Shown here piece after piece: positions 8,000-15,996 of a stretch of 27,572 nt of DNA (its first letter is position 1; each line of letters begins with the position of its first letter). The notes beneath the pieces were generated by a model that was not told where the DNA came from, searched no databases, and saw only the letters and a list, made by a program, of their open reading frames with translations. Made by a program: the position numbers and the translations under genes. The DNA is from a virus. Taxonomy: Duplodnaviria > Heunggongvirae > Uroviricota > Caudoviricetes. Location of the stretch: positions 1 to 27,572 of the IMG/VR virus record IMGVR_UViG_2639762873_000006; one strand, written 5' to 3'.

Positions 8000-9495
8000 T
8001 GTTCGGATGGAATAAAAAGAAAGTAGAAGAACCAAAACAAAAAGTATTAGTACAGAAGCCAGTGAAGCTAATGAAGAATAACCCGATGAAACGTGCAATG
8101 ACTTCCCTTAATTTGGGATCATCTAGCCCTGTTATCTCATTTGGCTTCACTGGCGGTAATCAGGCTGGCAATATTAACGCCATCATTAACCGTAATCTAC
8201 CTGTTATGGTTGCAGTAAGTCGTGAACTCTCAATTAAGAACGGTATTGTAAAGAAATATGTCAGTACGAATAGTGCGGGTGTAACGGGTGCAGATGGCCT
8301 ATATATTCGTCCTTGTACCCATAGCTCCGACGACGAACAAGTTAACCAGTCAATCGATAAACAGATTGAAGATGCATTCTATGCATGGGCCGAAGATCCT
8401 AAAGCGTTTTCCCGCTGCGGTACTCTAGATATCAGTACCTTCCAACGTCTGGTAGAACGTACTCGATCAGTAGATGGTGATTGTTTCATTCGCGTTCACA
8501 GTAAGCCAGGAGAGCTACCACAGATTGAGATTATCGATTCTATGCGTATCTCGACCTATGAGAACCAATTACTACCGTCGGGAAACTTTATCAGCAATGG
8601 TATTGAATTTGATATCAATACAAACCGTCCTGTAGCGTACTGGGTAACACGTTATAACCCCATCATGTACAACTATATGATTGGTGAGCGTGAGCGAGTA
8701 CCAGCAGACGAGATCCTACACCTATTCCAGCAGGACTACCCAACACAGCAACGCGGTATTCCAGATGTGCATTCCGGTACTGAAAAGTTAAAAGAGTTAG
8801 AGGAATTTATGGCGGCGGCAATTACTTCCCGTAAGGTTGCAGCGTCCGCAATGGCCTTTATCACTAATCCAGATAGTGACGATGTACAGCTACTGACTGA
8901 TGACAGTGTATCATACTATGATCAGGACTATCTAAATCCGGCTGCAATCGTAGAACTACAGGCAGGTCAGGATATTAAAACAGTAAACCCATCTCAGACT
9001 ACCGACGGTATTCAGGAGTTTATTGATAACCAAATGATGATGATTGCAATGGGATTAGATATTACAAAACAATCTCTAACTTCTGATACTAGTAATGCTT
9101 CATTCAGTGCTGCAAAGTTAACTGATAAATTACAGCAATCAACATTTAAAAGCCGTACTAATGCTTTAATTGTATCTGTACTAAAACCTCTTTATATTGC
9201 ATGGTTAAAATCTGCAATGCTAAATAGTAGTACATTAAGCAATTTAAATTTTAGTGATTTTAATAAATTGACTCATGCACAATATGTACAGACGCGTCAA
9301 ATCTCCCTAGATCCATATAAAGACCTTCAAACCGAAGTATTGGCAATTGATAACGGTTTAAAGAGTAAGGCAATGGTAATTTCGGAGATGGGATACGATC
9401 CGGTTATTGTCATGGAAGAAATCAACAAGGAAAATAAAGAAAATGGAATTGAACAAGAACCAGACGAGGGCGATCAATCTAACACAAATCAATAA
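7999..9495 (+). CDS. portal protein
   Basis: 498-aa ORF immediately after the terminase module, strong AGGAG RBS, acidic C-terminal tail; assignment is by position and size, not by a recognised motif. Confidence 0.65.
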   Translation: MFGWNKKKVEEPKQKVLVQKPVKLMKNNPMKRAMTSLNLGSSSPVISFGFTGGNQAGNINAIINRNLPVMVAVSRELSIKNGIVKKYVSTNSAGVTGADGLYIRPCTHSSDDEQVNQSIDKQIEDAFYAWAEDPKAFSRCGTLDISTFQRLVERTRSVDGDCFIRVHSKPGELPQIEIIDSMRISTYENQLLPSGNFISNGIEFDINTNRPVAYWVTRYNPIMYNYMIGERERVPADEILHLFQQDYPTQQRGIPDVHSGTEKLKELEEFMAAAITSRKVAASAMAFITNPDSDDVQLLTDDSVSYYDQDYLNPAAIVELQAGQDIKTVNPSQTTDGIQEFIDNQMMMIAMGLDITKQSLTSDTSNASFSAAKLTDKLQQSTFKSRTNALIVSVLKPLYIAWLKSAMLNSSTLSNLNFSDFNKLTHAQYVQTRQISLDPYKDLQTEVLAIDNGLKSKAMVISEMGYDPVIVMEEINKENKENGIEQEPDEGDQSNTNQ

Positions 9496-11305
9496 TGCAA
9501 TTGATGAAACTGATAGAACCGTAGAACTCTCTTTTGCCTCCGAAATTCCAGTAGTACGCGATATTAAAGGGACTCTCTACAATGAGATCCTTTTATGTAG
9601 TCCAGAAAACGTAGATTTAAGCCGTCTAAATGACGGTGCACCTGTACTAGTAGAACATGATGCAATGCGTCAAGTTGGTATAGTTGAAAATGCTCGCGTA
9701 GATATGGATAAGGTATGTCGTGCTACTGTACGTTTTAGTGCACTAGGAACCGCAAATACTATCTTCGGTATGATCGTAGAAGGTATTCGCCCTAAAGTAT
9801 CCGTAGGTTATAACATTCTAGATTACTACCTAGACGGTAATGATCTAATCGTTTCAAAATGGCAACCCTACGAAGTATCTAGCGTATCCACTCCGGGAGA
9901 TAATAGCGTAGGTGTGGGAAGATCACTAAATAGTAATGATGAAATTACTTTAGAGGATCAACCCCAAATGGAACCAGAACAAAAAGAAGAACTAGTACCG
10001 GAAGTAGAAATTATTGAAGAAGCACCAGTAGAAGAAGTGCAACCAGAAGTAATTGAAGAATCCGTAGTAGTCGAAAGTGAAGAATCAGTAGAAGTAGTAG
10101 AAGAACCCGAAGTGATCGAGGAAGTACAAGAAGAAGTACAACCGGAATTAGTAGAAGAACGTTCTATTGCAGTAACTGATATTCAAGAAAGTATAAATAA
10201 AGAAGTAGAAGCAAATCGTATTCGCGAACTTCAATCTATCTCTTCGGTACTAGGTGTTAGTACAGAAGAAGCAATTAAAAACGGTGTAAGCGTAGAAGAC
10301 TTTAAACGCTCACTAAATACAGATAATAAATCAATTGATAAGGATATCAAAAAAATGGAAAAGAAATCTCTAATTAACGAAGGTCTACGCAGTCTAAAAG
10401 GTGAAGCACACGATCTAGAAACTTTCGAAAAAGGTGCTCGCGGTTATAATGCAGACCTAAACGCAATGGTACGTAGCACCGCTGATACCACTTCTACCGT
10501 AACTGCGGCAGGTCTAGTAAAAGAAGAACTATCCGACGCGTATATTCGCCAACTACTAGCACAAACCGTACTAGGTCAACTACCAGTGACTGTATTTGGT
10601 GGCCTTGCTGGTCGTGGCAACTTCTCTATCCCGCGTGCTAAAGGTATGAACCCAGCAGCTAAATTCTATAACGAAGATGAAGCAGTAACCGACGGCTTCG
10701 AAACCTTTGATAAGATCACTCTAAAGCCTCGCATGTTCGCAGCAGGTATCAAGATCACTAAAGCAATGCTACTAAGCAACGCAGCAACCGAACGTTATGT
10801 TACCGACGAGCTACTACGCCAATGTTCTAACGGTCTAGAATCAGCAGTATTTGCACAAATCGCTACTACCGTTCCAGTACAACAAACCGCAGTATCTGGT
10901 CAAGTATCCGAAGCAGACGTACAGAAAGCTATCGAAGTTATCTCCGCTAAAAACGTAGATATCAATCGTTGTGTAGCTATCGTGCATCCTTCTATGCTTG
11001 CAAAACTACGTCAAACCGCAGTATTGAATAACACCGCAGCCGTAGCAATGGTAGCAGGTCATCGTTATGACATGTGGTTGAATGACGAAGTACGTGTAAT
11101 TGAATCTACTTTCGTAGCAGCAGATACCATTCTAATCGGTGATTTCTCTGAGCTAATCTTTGCTAACTGGAATGAAGGCCAAGAACTAGATTTTGATGAT
11201 ACTACCTACCGTGCAGCACAAACTATTGCAATTCGTAGTTTCCAATACCTAGATGTAGCTATCGCACACGAAGAAGCATTTGTACAACTACAACTAAAAC
11301 CATAA
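9443..11305 (+). CDS. prohead protease (HK97/S78-type) - acidic linker - major capsid protein (HK97 fold) fusion
   Basis: N-terminal about 170 aa carry protease-like motifs (GAPVLVEHD, SVGYNILDY, EVSSVSTPGD); Glu/Val-rich repeat linker; C-terminal about 300 aa look like an HK97-family capsid protein. Track start 9407 is TTG; ATG 9443 with an AAGGAAA RBS is preferred. Confidence 0.8.
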   Translation: MELNKNQTRAINLTQINNAIDETDRTVELSFASEIPVVRDIKGTLYNEILLCSPENVDLSRLNDGAPVLVEHDAMRQVGIVENARVDMDKVCRATVRFSALGTANTIFGMIVEGIRPKVSVGYNILDYYLDGNDLIVSKWQPYEVSSVSTPGDNSVGVGRSLNSNDEITLEDQPQMEPEQKEELVPEVEIIEEAPVEEVQPEVIEESVVVESEESVEVVEEPEVIEEVQEEVQPELVEERSIAVTDIQESINKEVEANRIRELQSISSVLGVSTEEAIKNGVSVEDFKRSLNTDNKSIDKDIKKMEKKSLINEGLRSLKGEAHDLETFEKGARGYNADLNAMVRSTADTTSTVTAAGLVKEELSDAYIRQLLAQTVLGQLPVTVFGGLAGRGNFSIPRAKGMNPAAKFYNEDEAVTDGFETFDKITLKPRMFAAGIKITKAMLLSNAATERYVTDELLRQCSNGLESAVFAQIATTVPVQQTAVSGQVSEADVQKAIEVISAKNVDINRCVAIVHPSMLAKLRQTAVLNNTAAVAMVAGHRYDMWLNDEVRVIESTFVAADTILIGDFSELIFANWNEGQELDFDDTTYRAAQTIAIRSFQYLDVAIAHEEAFVQLQLKP

Positions 11306-11318
11306 GGATATAACCACT

Positions 11319-11639
11319 ATGAGGCATTTTACTAGCAATCAAATTGATTCTACTTTCTTAAATGCCTTTGGTGAACCTATCACAATTAACGGGGCGAGTT
11401 TTACGGCAATCGTAGATCATCGCCCCGTTGTCGTTGATTCTAGCACTGAAGGACTAGTAGAAAGTACAGAATCATTCTTATCAGTAAAGACTGATGACCT
11501 ATCTACTTACAATATCGCTATTGATTCAGTGGTAGGCGTACAGGGTACTACATACACTGTATATAATATCTATAATGATTTGAGTGGTATTAGTGAAGTA
11601 TTCATTAGACCGTCAGCAATTAATAATTACGGGTGGTAA
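11319..11639 (+). CDS. head-tail attachment protein (lambda FII-like)
   Basis: 106 aa, directly after the capsid gene; pattern ITINGASFTAIVDHRP ... SFLSVKTDDL ... GTTYTVYNIYND resembles lambda FII as I recall it. Confidence 0.45.
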   Translation: MRHFTSNQIDSTFLNAFGEPITINGASFTAIVDHRPVVVDSSTEGLVESTESFLSVKTDDLSTYNIAIDSVVGVQGTTYTVYNIYNDLSGISEVFIRPSAINNYGW

Positions 11640-11640
11640 T

Positions 11641-12033
11641 ATGAATCTTCTAACTCAAGTACAGAAAACATTAAGAGACAGTTTAAATAATATCATCCCA
11701 ATTCGCAAAGCAATGAATATTGCAGCAGGTCGTGATCTCTTTATTCTCGTTTCAACCAATCAAACCTACCAATCAGTAAACTATAATAATCAAAATCAAA
11801 TGGGTAATTTTACCTTTCAATTCCTATTAGTACCAGAACCTTCAATTACATTACCCGCTGATACCTTCGGTACTATTTTTGATTACTTCCGTACTAATAC
11901 GATCATGGAATTTGGTAATAATGGCGTACAACTCCATAGCTATGACGTAGCTGACAGTGAACTAGTAACTGATCCGTCAACTGGTTATCAATCGCTATCT
12001 TTTGCAATAAATATTGTAGCAACTTTAAAATAA
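11641..12033 (+). CDS. putative tail terminator/neck protein (U-like by position)
   Basis: 130 aa starting at ATG 11641 (overlaps the upstream stop); sits where a tail terminator is expected; similarity to lambda U is weak. Confidence 0.35.
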   Translation: MNLLTQVQKTLRDSLNNIIPIRKAMNIAAGRDLFILVSTNQTYQSVNYNNQNQMGNFTFQFLLVPEPSITLPADTFGTIFDYFRTNTIMEFGNNGVQLHSYDVADSELVTDPSTGYQSLSFAINIVATLK

Positions 12034-12046
12034 AAGGAATTAAAAG

Positions 12047-15000
12047 ATGGCAGATCAAATTTTTACAGGGAGTGGTTTTAAATTATTTTATAATGACGAT
12101 ACCGCAAACCGTATCCCCGATAACGCAGGGAACGAGCTAGTAAATGAATTGGCGGCTATGCCTTCATTCGGTATTGATAGCCAAGTACAAACTATTGAAG
12201 TATATAACAGTGAATTTTCAGAGAAACTACTCGCAGAACAGAACGTAAACGATATTGATATTGTTGTTAACTACGTACCAGATTGCACCGCTCACGCATT
12301 TTTAGATCAAGCGACCGAAGATCAGACCGAGTTCCAGCTAACACTACAGTACGCCGTAACTGATGGTATCATCTCCTACAGTATGGTGAATGGTATGATT
12401 AGTTCCGCTCGCCTTGCTGGTGATAAAGACTCAGTAGTTACTAAATCATATACCTTTACCCCTACCGACGTTCTAGTACGTGATGGACAGGCACCATTGA
12501 GTACCGGACTAGTTGTAGGATCATATGGCGTAGGTAGTAACGGCGTAGACGTACCACAGTACGAACCACAGTTACCAAATGGCAACAGTTTTATCAAAGT
12601 ACCAGCAGCACGCAATGATAACCCAGCTAGTGCGGATCTAATGGGTATTGGTCTTATCGATTCCGGTACATTCTCCAGTATTGCAATGACTAAATCCGGT
12701 ACATTGGCAATCTATGCAAAGAACCAGAATACAGCATGGACGCGTATACTTACTGCAACTCAGATTAGTGATCAGTATGTACCACTTACGCGTAAGGTTA
12801 ATGGTAAAGCACTAAATGCAGATATTACTATTACTAAAGTAGATGTAGGACTAGGTAACGTAACTAATGATGCACAATTGAAAATAGCTAGTAACCTTTC
12901 TGATTTAAATAACGTCAACACAGCCCGTACTAACTTAAAAGTAGCTCGTTTTGAAGAAACTAGACCAGACCTAAGTACAATTTATTCTACTGATGATAAG
13001 TCTGGATATAAAGTAGTAGTACGTAGTGATGGCTATTGGGGTGCAATGAATGCAGACGGCACAGTCACTAAAGGTCTATCGATTGACATGGGCGGTACTG
13101 GTGCAAATACATTAGCACAAGCTCAAGCTAATCTAGGTATTGTAACTAGTGCGGCACAGGATGGAAAATATCTAGCTAAGGCAAGTAACCTTTCTGATTT
13201 ACCAAGTAAACCAACAGCCCGTACTAACTTAGGATTAGGTACAGCAGCTACATATAATGTAAGTAGTTCCGGTGCAAACGTTCCATTAATGAGTAGTGCA
13301 AATACGTGGACTGGAATACAATATTTTGGCAATGCACAATTTACATCTACCTATGTTAACCCGTTATTGATTCATAGTCCTACACCTACAATCTATTTGA
13401 AAGATACAGATACAAACGGCTTAGGGATGAAATTAATTGCAGATGGTAGTGTATTCCGTATGCAAGATGATACCTCCGCTGAAACGTGGGCTTTTTCTTA
13501 TAATTACAGTACGAAAGTAGTTACAATGCCATCCTTGCAACTTGCAACTAAACTACAAGTAGCAGAAGGCGGTACGGGTGCAACAAATTGGAAACAGGCA
13601 GCATATAACCTTAACGTTATGCCATATAACCGCAATAGTTTAACTGCAAGTGATAATCTCAATAATTTTGGTGGTCTTAATGCTGGTGTATATTTTTGTG
13701 CTTCAAGTGCTTATGCAACCCCTGCAAATAACTACCCAGAAGCTAACGCAGGTACAGTAATAGTTTATCAGAACGCCGCAAATAGTAGTGATGGTTGTAC
13801 ACAATTTTACTATCCATTCAATACTAACAAAGCATATAAACGTATTCTAAGATTTACCAGTCCAACTACTTCTACGTGGTCATCATGGGCAGAGATCCTA
13901 ACCTCCGAACATATTACCCCCGGTAATATCCCTCGTTTAAATGGTGGTAATACGTGGAATGGTAACCAATCTATTGATACTGGTTATCTAACACTAGGTT
14001 TAAAAAATACCAATGCAACCGCATTTGAAATTGGTAGCCAAACTACAAAAAACTCAGCTTATATTGACTTCCATACAAGCGGTTTAACTAATGACTATGA
14101 TACACGTATTATTGCAGAAACTACTACATCCACTGCAAATGGACAAGGTAAATTATCCTTCGTTGGTGGTGAGTTTAACTTTAATAATAATATTACAGGT
14201 CAGGGAAATATTACGGCTAATGCCTTTATCTCTAAAACTGTAGTTAGTGCAACTGGTGCTATCACTGGTGCAAGCCTCAATACTGGATCTGGTGCTATCA
14301 CTGGTGGTGCAATTAGCGGTACTACATTGACTACAACAGGAGCGGCGAAAGTAGGTAGTATTGATTCTACTGGTGGTCTATATGGGACTGGTGTAGTACA
14401 GGCAGATTCAGCCACTACTGGTACTTATATTAGAATGGGTAATGGTACAACTGATAACTATATCACAAGTAACAACTTCCCAGCAGGCGGTACACAACGC
14501 TATCTACAGTTCAAGAATGACGGTACTGTTAGAATCTCCGACCAGTTGATTATGCACAATAACTTAGATGCAAGTGGTAGCGACTTCCAAGTTACGGCTA
14601 ATAACTTCCGTATAGTAACTGGTGGTAATGGTCTACAGATCAAAAACAATTCAGGATCTGTATCATCTTATCTATCTGGCATTGGGTCTACTAACGTTCG
14701 CGAATGGTACATAGGTAAAGGTGGATCAGGTAAAGGGATTGCATGGTGGAACGATATGTCAGGCGGTCACGGTGTTGATTTAGGGGCAGATGGTAACATC
14801 ACATTAAATACCCTTGCCAGTACCGGAAACGTTAACATACGCGGTACTATGTCAACTACTGGTAGATTATCCGTAACAGGTGATGTAACAGCTTCCGGTA
14901 TAGTTAGAGCTAATACTACTTTTTCAGTTAATGGTACTAGTGGAACTTCTAACGCCCACCTATGGTACTACGGTCACACTGGAGCAAGTCGCGGCGTAAT

Positions 15001-15481
15001 CTATGCGGGAAGTGGCGGTACTATTAACTTCCGACCGGATCGTAATGATGCTGGGGGAGCTAATGGATACTCCGCAGCACTAGATTATACTGGTAAATTT
15101 ACTTGTATGTCGTTATCTCAAACATCCGACCAACGAGCTAAATATGATGCCGCTGATATTAGTGATTCACTAGGTAAGGTACTACAGCTAACTGGTAAGA
15201 CTTATAAAATGAAAGTTACACCAGAAGTAGAAGTAGATGGCGTGGGATTCTTTGCTCAGGAAGTAGAAAAATTCTTCCCAGAAGCTGTATCATCCGTTGG
15301 TAGTGCATATACTCAAGAAGGCGAAGAAATCGAAAACCCACTAGGTCTAGATTATCAGGCTATTTCTGTACTATATGCTGGGGCTATTAAAGAGCTAAAT
15401 GCTAAAGTAGAAGACCAACAATTACAACTCGATGAACTACGTGCTGTAGTAACTCAATTACTAATCGCACAGAATAAATAA
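12047..15481 (+). CDS. tail-tube-domain / tail-fibre fusion protein with C-terminal S74-type intramolecular chaperone domain
   Basis: Residues 1-150 align along their length with the 152-aa tube protein (15538-15996), roughly one-third identical by eye; two phage tail-fibre repeats (NLSDL...ARTNL); Gly/Thr/Ser/Asn-rich fibrous middle; C-terminal SDQRAKYD ... GFFAQEVEKFFPEAV ... coiled coil matches the S74 autoproteolytic chaperone pattern. Confidence 0.75.
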   Translation: MADQIFTGSGFKLFYNDDTANRIPDNAGNELVNELAAMPSFGIDSQVQTIEVYNSEFSEKLLAEQNVNDIDIVVNYVPDCTAHAFLDQATEDQTEFQLTLQYAVTDGIISYSMVNGMISSARLAGDKDSVVTKSYTFTPTDVLVRDGQAPLSTGLVVGSYGVGSNGVDVPQYEPQLPNGNSFIKVPAARNDNPASADLMGIGLIDSGTFSSIAMTKSGTLAIYAKNQNTAWTRILTATQISDQYVPLTRKVNGKALNADITITKVDVGLGNVTNDAQLKIASNLSDLNNVNTARTNLKVARFEETRPDLSTIYSTDDKSGYKVVVRSDGYWGAMNADGTVTKGLSIDMGGTGANTLAQAQANLGIVTSAAQDGKYLAKASNLSDLPSKPTARTNLGLGTAATYNVSSSGANVPLMSSANTWTGIQYFGNAQFTSTYVNPLLIHSPTPTIYLKDTDTNGLGMKLIADGSVFRMQDDTSAETWAFSYNYSTKVVTMPSLQLATKLQVAEGGTGATNWKQAAYNLNVMPYNRNSLTASDNLNNFGGLNAGVYFCASSAYATPANNYPEANAGTVIVYQNAANSSDGCTQFYYPFNTNKAYKRILRFTSPTTSTWSSWAEILTSEHITPGNIPRLNGGNTWNGNQSIDTGYLTLGLKNTNATAFEIGSQTTKNSAYIDFHTSGLTNDYDTRIIAETTTSTANGQGKLSFVGGEFNFNNNITGQGNITANAFISKTVVSATGAITGASLNTGSGAITGGAISGTTLTTTGAAKVGSIDSTGGLYGTGVVQADSATTGTYIRMGNGTTDNYITSNNFPAGGTQRYLQFKNDGTVRISDQLIMHNNLDASGSDFQVTANNFRIVTGGNGLQIKNNSGSVSSYLSGIGSTNVREWYIGKGGSGKGIAWWNDMSGGHGVDLGADGNITLNTLASTGNVNIRGTMSTTGRLSVTGDVTASGIVRANTTFSVNGTSGTSNAHLWYYGHTGASRGVIYAGSGGTINFRPDRNDAGGANGYSAALDYTGKFTCMSLSQTSDQRAKYDAADISDSLGKVLQLTGKTYKMKVTPEVEVDGVGFFAQEVEKFFPEAVSSVGSAYTQEGEEIENPLGLDYQAISVLYAGAIKELNAKVEDQQLQLDELRAVVTQLLIAQNK
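12890..12937 (+). repeat. tail-fibre repeat unit, copy 1 (48 nt)
   Basis: AGTAACCTTTCTGATTTA + 12 nt + ACAGCCCGTACTAACTTA; both 18-nt blocks identical to copy 2. Confidence 0.8.
13184..13231 (+). repeat. tail-fibre repeat unit, copy 2 (48 nt)
   Basis: Same two 18-nt blocks as copy 1 with a different 12-nt spacer; encodes SNLSDL....ARTNL. Confidence 0.8.
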
Positions 15482-15488
15482 ATAAACG

Positions 15489-15510
15489 GTAGGGAAAAGG
15501 CTTTCCCTAC
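15489..15510 (+). promoter_or_regulatory. perfect 9-bp stem hairpin between the fibre-fusion gene and the tube gene
   Basis: GTAGGGAAA aggc TTTCCCTAC, 8 nt after the stop at 15479-15481; no T-run. Confidence 0.45.
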
Positions 15511-15537
15511 TAATCCAACTTATATAAGGAAATAAAA

Positions 15538-15996
15538 ATGGCTTTTTCAATTATGACTGGTGCTAACCTAAAGGTAGAGTTAGGCACTTATACAGCAGGT
15601 AGTGATACCCCAGCAATCGATTTTAAAGAGATTCCAGAAGTGGCAACCTTTGCTACTAGTGGTTTTGAATCTACTGTAATTGACGTAGTTACTTACAACA
15701 GTAGTTTTAACCGTAAGCTACTAGGTACTAAATCCATCCCAGATATCGAACTAACTGTAAACTACCTAGCAGACAACGCAGTACACCAACAGTTAGAAAA
15801 ACTTGCAGACGATCAAGTACGTACTCAGGTTAAAATCACCTACTACGAAAACGCAACCCGTACTACTGGCTTCTTTGTAATCTATAATGCTTTCGTATCT
15901 GCTAACTTGATTGCAGGTAGTAAAGATGAAGTAGTAACTAAGGCATTCACCCTAGCGGTAGATGGCGGTCCTCTTTCTTCTGGCGTTAACCCATAA
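15538..15996 (+). CDS. major tail (tube) protein
   Basis: 152 aa, strong RBS, directly upstream of the chaperone pair and tape measure gene; followed by a strong intrinsic terminator. Confidence 0.7.
   Translation: MAFSIMTGANLKVELGTYTAGSDTPAIDFKEIPEVATFATSGFESTVIDVVTYNSSFNRKLLGTKSIPDIELTVNYLADNAVHQQLEKLADDQVRTQVKITYYENATRTTGFFVIYNAFVSANLIAGSKDEVVTKAFTLAVDGGPLSSGVNP

Follow-up and report, generated by a model that had tools for sequence, protein, structure and literature searches.

Does the tail fibre encoded in a 27,572-nucleotide stretch of DNA from a tailed virus (Caudoviricetes; IMG/VR record IMGVR_UViG_2639762873_000006, positions 1 to 27,572; hereafter the window) end in a chaperone domain that cuts itself off, and how would such a fibre be held on the tail? 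The window belongs to a prophage roughly 32 kb long, and the gene in question is the following.

12047..15481, plus strand: whole fibre gene, 1144 amino acid residues, 120.9 kDa, tail fibre (open reading frame (ORF) list; PHROG tail-fibre families; 629 homologues)

The product consists, in order, of a tail-tube-like domain, a shaft, a knob, a tip and an S74 chaperone. Its last 118 of 1144 residues (1027-1144), located downstream of the parts that match PHROG tail-fibre families and the long tail fibres of T5-like phages, very probably act as a C-terminal intramolecular chaperone and autoprotease of the S74 family, which ends the side tail fibre of a siphovirus-type Escherichia coli prophage. 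The less ordinary feature of the fibre is the copy of a tube subunit at its start, which we consider more interesting than the S74 domain.

Identification of the S74 domain

The features of the C-terminal region are listed below.

15125..15478, plus strand: predicted released fragment, residues 1027-1144, 118 residues, 12.9 kDa
15125..15289, plus strand: residues 1027-1081, core Peptidase_S74 hidden Markov model (HMM) match, from SDQRAK to GFFAQEVEKFFPEAV (PF13884)
15122..15127, plus strand: predicted scissile bond between Thr1026 and Ser1027, codons aca tcc (sequence reading; analogy with T5 pb1 and MyRF)
15140..15142, plus strand: Lys1032 (codon aaa), predicted general base of the Ser-Lys dyad (invariant in 90/90 homologues; aligned with MyRF K592 in SDLRAK)
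15353..15472, plus strand: residues 1103-1142, C-terminal amphipathic helix, predicted trimeric coiled coil (AlphaFold2 (AF2) model; heptads; alignment with the alpha4 coiled coil of MyRF)

The codon of Ser1027 (tcc) occupies 15125-15127, and Lys1144 is the final sense codon (15476-15478), followed by the TAA stop at 15479-15481. On the opposite strand beneath the S74 region there is no frame of 60 residues or more (ORF list).

The original prediction, made from the letters of the window, had placed an S74-like C-terminal domain at 15125-15478, and these coordinates proved exact. It had proposed a Pfam/HMM search, with the lack of an S74 hit counting against it; the search returned Peptidase_S74 (PF13884) on residues 1027-1081 with an E value of 4.7e-11 and 43.2 bits (gathering cut-off, 22 bits), covering positions 1-57 of the 58 in the profile. 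A match of this strength is far outside what chance would give. The predicted succession of SDQRAK (residues 1027-1032) and GFFAQEVEKFFPEAV (residues 1067-1081) lies inside the match, and the two motifs bound it exactly at both ends. The serine and lysine that had been named as the cleavage dyad are present as Ser1027 and Lys1032, spaced S-x4-K as in the catalytic dyad already known.

We examined the conservation of these residues in the 90 of the top 120 homologues that have an alignable C-terminal domain. Lys1032 and Gly1067 are kept in all 90, Asp1028 in 87 and Q1071 in 86, while the position of Ser1027 holds Ser in 86 and Cys in four. The C-terminal helix motif QQxQ[IL]DEL is also conserved among the homologues, and in a separate MAFFT alignment the lysine (K81 of the aligned fragment) and the glycine were again invariant. 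The four homologues with Cys at the nucleophile position (P0099, P0103, P0106 and P0108; NPNCDIKLK) have an otherwise intact domain and may represent a naturally occurring Cys-Lys form of the autoprotease. Three further homologues (for example, P0025 and P0033) have Gly in place of the Asp after the Ser.

Comparison of the C-terminal 168 residues with the sequences of solved structures detected the ICA domain of MyRF (7dc3, E 7e-7) and the C-terminal end of gp37 from Salmonella phage S16 (6f45, E 0.025). The two alignments each cover the Ser-Asp-x-x-x-Lys and G-x-x-A-Q-E-V motifs as well as the terminal helix, and in 7dc3, which is an S587A mutant, Ser1027 and Lys1032 align with A587 and K592. 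The predicted fold of the region, a mixed alpha/beta body with a long C-terminal helix, matches four solved chaperone domains. Four independent lines of evidence thus concur, and residues 1027-1144 are confirmed as a genuine S74 domain. As a classification this is routine, adding another member to a family that is well known and already picked up by annotation pipelines.

The terminal coiled coil of the original prediction corresponds to the helix predicted at residues 1103-1142, which has a predicted local distance difference test score (pLDDT) above 90 in the AF2 model and a readable heptad register of four to five heptads. The a positions are I1114, V1121, L1128 and V1135, and the d positions are Y1110, L1117, Q1124, L1131 and L1138. 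The helix is predicted to build a parallel trimeric coiled coil. A similar trimeric coiled coil, of four heptads and likewise with a buried polar d position, is found in MyRF (PMC8326128).

Proposed folding and cleavage pathway

Mutagenesis of homologues has established how the reaction proceeds. MyRF is cut between Pro586 and Ser587, the cut is abolished by S587A and by K592A, these two residues are the equivalents of S911 and K916 of endoNF, and trimerisation is driven mainly by the C-terminal coiled coil (PMC8326128). T5 pb1 is cut between Thr1263 and Ser1264; the cut is blocked by S1264A, Lys1269 activates the serine, and the serine departs with the chaperone (PMC4690869).

Because the solved homologues behave in this way, we infer trimerisation, cleavage and release for the present fibre as follows. 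The helices at residues 1103-1142 would first gather three chains as a parallel three-helix coiled coil, which would nucleate the folding of the intertwined tip in the direction from the C-terminus to the N-terminus. Once the trimer is correctly made, Lys1032 would activate Ser1027 in each chain, and the bond between Thr1026 and Ser1027 would be cut. The trimer of 12.9-kDa chaperones would then depart, and the remaining chains (residues 1-1026) would stay as a stable trimeric fibre with the receptor-binding tip exposed. By analogy, the products would be a mature chain of 1026 residues (108.0 kDa) and the 118-residue fragment, in agreement with the original prediction of a trimeric mature fibre ending near residue 1026, and the interpretation given there is supported at every point that computation can address.

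The value of the S74 assignment lies chiefly in accurate annotation and in laboratory practice. When the fibre is expressed, a mature chain of 108 kDa would be expected, and the construct should retain the C-terminal 118 residues to allow folding. The receptor-binding tip is located immediately ahead of residue 1026.

Evaluation of alternative explanations

Several results weigh against the self-cleaving chaperone. The NCBIfam search of the fibre gave no match, although RefSeq calls a relative an S74 peptidase, and Foldseek by itself recovered only MyRF (E 8e-7). The structure model is that of a monomer, so the dyad geometry and the trimer are outside its reach, and the pLDDT is only about 69 around the scissile bond (residues 1022-1031) and about 48-70 in the tip before it (residues 952-1021). 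Furthermore, the arginine of a neighbouring chain that serves as a folding sensor 14 residues before the serine (R897 in endoNF, R1250 in T5) has no counterpart in the fibre, where position -14 is Asp1013, and the homologue alignment showed no conserved Arg in the 30 residues upstream of Ser1027. MyRF is also without this arginine, yet it cleaves (PMC8326128); its absence therefore does not exclude membership in the S74 family.

The missing arginine, by which endoNF and T5 couple cleavage to folding, is compatible with a genuine S74 domain that aids trimerisation and is then retained as the distal end of the fibre, with cleavage being very slow or dependent on a trigger. The regulated cleavage of MyRF points the same way, and the site tolerates change, as four homologues have Cys for Ser and three have Gly for Asp. 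Nevertheless, Ser1027 and Lys1032 are both present and widely kept (86/90 and 90/90), MyRF needs no such arginine, and all tested S74 fibres and spikes with an intact dyad cleave (PMC8326128, PMC4690869). We consider retention unlikely. That the C-terminus is merely a receptor-binding tip, neither chaperone nor protease, with a chance resemblance to the motif, might be argued from the six residues S-D-x-x-x-K, which on their own are common by chance; this is effectively refuted by the HMM match over 55 residues (E 4.7e-11), by the fold match to four solved chaperone domains and by the conservation of the domain throughout the homologues, with Lys and Gly invariant, and its probability is negligible.

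A decaying prophage, in which the protein is never made and the domain has no present function, would accord with the rarity of the element, which was found in only two of 5,426 complete E. coli genomes, with the G+C content of the window (38.8%), which is unusually low for E. coli and far below that of its chromosome (approximately 51%), and with the split of the fibre gene in one relative (L005, see below). However, the frame of 1144 codons is intact, the neighbouring head and tail genes are all intact and syntenic with those of relatives in Klebsiella and other hosts, and the N-terminal module and the dyad are clearly conserved. Decay is thus very improbable, and a chaperone that releases itself from the fibre is the reading that we retain.

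A tail-tube-like domain at the N-terminus

The features of the N-terminal region, together with the next gene, are as follows.

12047..12511, plus strand: residues 1-155, domain with a tail-tube-protein fold, paralogue of the product of the next gene
12512..12946, plus strand: residues 156-300, conserved linker plus a small beta domain, leading into the first fibre repeats (invariant residues; shared by the top 120 homologues)
15538..15996, plus strand: bona fide tail tube protein, 152 residues, paralogue of the domain at the N-terminus of the fibre (Pfam Phage_tail_3, E 2.2e-7, above the cut-off; phrog_158; RefSeq 'phage tail tube protein')

Residues 1-155 are 33% identical to the 152-residue product of the next gene (E 9e-22), and both the fibre and this protein match phrog_158 ('major tail protein'). 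The domain has both the beta-sandwich fold of tube proteins and a sequence kinship to a bona fide tube protein. It is a tail tube protein paralogue, which the original prediction overlooked.

Residues 1-300 are common to all of the top 120 homologues (40-100% identity), whereas the distal parts are mosaic. Twelve residues (G161, G163, G179, N180, F182, K184, P186, P193, D197, G200, W231 and R233) are invariant in 48 homologues. Residues 1-155 and 156-300 together are the N-terminal module that defines the family. At the other end of the chain, even proteins with 99% identical N-termini share only about 35% identity in their S74 domains, and some members of the family end in Phage_tail_C_2 (PF25670), not in S74. 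Members of the latter kind at loci L003 and L004 have no added gene between the fibre and tube genes and so no separate chaperone gene there, which gives no support either way.

The module has a narrow distribution. When 1.84 billion representative proteins were searched with residues 1-240, only 147 matched, about 96 of them with E values below 1e-30; most of these strong matches are proteins of 600-1560 residues in which the domain begins at the first residues. The architecture occurs in about 100 clusters at 50% identity, from Enterobacterales prophages. The tube-like domain is absent from 50,697 sequenced phage records (tblastn with residues 1-300, which detected only short fibre repeats from residue 184 on), the fibre and tube genes gave no megablast match in the same records, and residues 1-300 matched no PDB entry by sequence.

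The N-terminal domain would anchor the fibre by taking the position of a subunit in a tail-tube ring, which may lie beside the tip, beside the neck or at repeated sites along the tube. We see about an even chance that a single chain here combines a tail-tube subunit (the first 155 residues, belonging to a six-fold ring) with a side fibre (whose last 118 residues would force three-fold symmetry and then cut themselves off). Such anchoring, with either two trimeric fibres on a homo-hexameric ring or one on a 3+3 ring shared with the ordinary tube protein, and with no collar or adaptor, would be of a kind not yet described for siphovirus tails; for fusion of a tube protein and a fibre, the literature yielded only precedents in separate polypeptides. 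The tube-paralogue ring p140 of T5, which carries the p132 collar and the fibres, and the hetero-hexameric DTP1/DTP2 mixed ring of Nocturne116 both consist of ring proteins separate from the fibre, whereas here the two are in one chain. The fibre and tube genes each have an AAGGAA ribosome-binding site 6-7 nucleotides before the ATG, and the shared site therefore gives no clue to the stoichiometry of fibre and tube protein.

If the domain truly integrates into the tube, it would be a minimal, adaptor-free way to hang three-fold fibres on a six-fold tube, and the fibre would offer a clean system for studying how a chain whose folding is nucleated at the C-terminus can also assemble at its N-terminus. 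The presence of a tube-protein anchor on the same polypeptide lifts the interest of the fibre somewhat above that of a plain domain call.

Comparison with T5-type fibres and other S74 proteins

The original prediction had likened the fibre to the T5 type. Three collinear BLASTP segments over residues 223-1139 aligned with the long tail fibre of Tequintavirus ESCO30, with CVTLNQSSDRDLK of the fibre paired with CMSLSQTSDQRAK, and T5-like phages were among the best tblastn matches of the fibre. The label therefore holds for the shaft, the tip and the chaperone but not for residues 1-222, which matched no T5-like phage (tblastn, phage records) and have the tube-protein paralogue instead. The knob is also shared with this group.

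13553..13906, plus strand: residues 503-620, knob domain common to T5-like long tail fibres (47% identity to residues 420-533 of the Tequintavirus ESCO30 long tail fibre; phrog_6578)

The proximal shaft (window positions about 12880-13260, residues about 280-405) contains repeated units of the form ASNLSDL...ARTNLGLG, which match the repeat units of a solved short tail fibre (9zd7 gp92; four stretches, E 1e-9).

The fibre differs from each of the known S74 proteins with which we compared it. About 50 N-terminal residues of T5 pb1 (4UW8) are woven into the separate p132 collar around the separate p140 ring, whereas here the tube-like domain and the fibre form one chain, with no p132-like protein detected. 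With 118 residues, the present chaperone is shorter than that of T5 (133 residues), and T5 has the Arg at -14 that is missing here. Endosialidase endoNF of K1F (3GW6), the founding S74 member of MEROPS and Pfam, carries the domain after a triple-beta-helix tailspike with a sialidase domain, and couples cleavage to folding via Arg897, which has no evident equivalent in the present fibre. The neck appendage of phi29/GA-1 (3GUD) also has an autocleaving chaperone, but it belongs to a podovirus and has a passenger spike of the pectin-lyase type without a tube-like anchor. MyRF (7DC3) is a eukaryotic membrane-bound transcription factor, in which cleavage frees a DNA-binding trimer and not a virion fibre.

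Prophage context and relatives

A related element is present in E. coli WGI31CT, inside yegD and beside a large serine recombinase (94.7% DNA identity over the aligned 74% of a 9.6-kb query). RefSeq calls its fibre (1074 residues, row P0014) a 'pyocin knob domain-containing S74 family peptidase' and lists the gene after it as 'phage tail tube protein'. Only the N-terminal part of this fibre matches that of the window (93-95% identity); the distal half and the S74 domain differ. The full-length homologue P0001 (94% identical) is a record separate from the WGI31CT fibre. Further relatives come from Klebsiella, Enterobacter, Citrobacter, Kosakonia and other genera. Among sequenced phages, capsid proteins reach only about 30% identity to the one encoded here.

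The genes run in the order portal, protease-capsid fusion, FII-like head-tail joining protein, a protein of 130 residues, fibre and tube protein, followed by two chaperone-sized genes, tape measure, Dit-like protein (ORF 19014-19568), hub-like protein, DUF6950 and a gpJ-like central fibre of 1100 residues. The same order is found in the Klebsiella relatives and in metagenomic contigs. At one metagenomic locus (L005, 5001-8499) the fibre is split into an ORF of 816 residues and an overlapping ORF of 363 residues that bears S74. The split is due to a frameshift or an error in sequencing, or else this copy is decaying.

Neighbouring features

Two other features flank the fibre gene.

15488..15511, plus strand: hairpin with a 10-bp stem and a 4-nucleotide loop in the 56-nucleotide spacer that separates the fibre gene from the tube gene (folding energy -14.6 kcal/mol, z -2.5)
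11584-12033 (RefSeq-style start 11641): ORF of 130-149 residues, after the FII-like head-tail joining gene and before the fibre gene

Because the hairpin lacks a following U-tract on the plus (coding) strand, it does not qualify as a classical terminator; a terminator-like call was obtained on the minus strand only. The ORF of 130-149 residues overlaps the end of the ORF at 11319-11639 when the upstream GTG start is used. In its 130-residue form (11641-12033) it matched no Pfam or PHROGs family; its homologues are all close relatives, and a profile made from them matched nothing in the PDB or PHROGs. It could be a tail terminator or completion protein. Further upstream, at 9407-11305, an ORF of 632 residues has an N-terminal part like a prohead protease or scaffold protein fused to an HK97-type major capsid protein (partial match to NCBIfam NF045541; TIGR01554), and its relatives have Peptidase_S78 and Phage_capsid on one chain.
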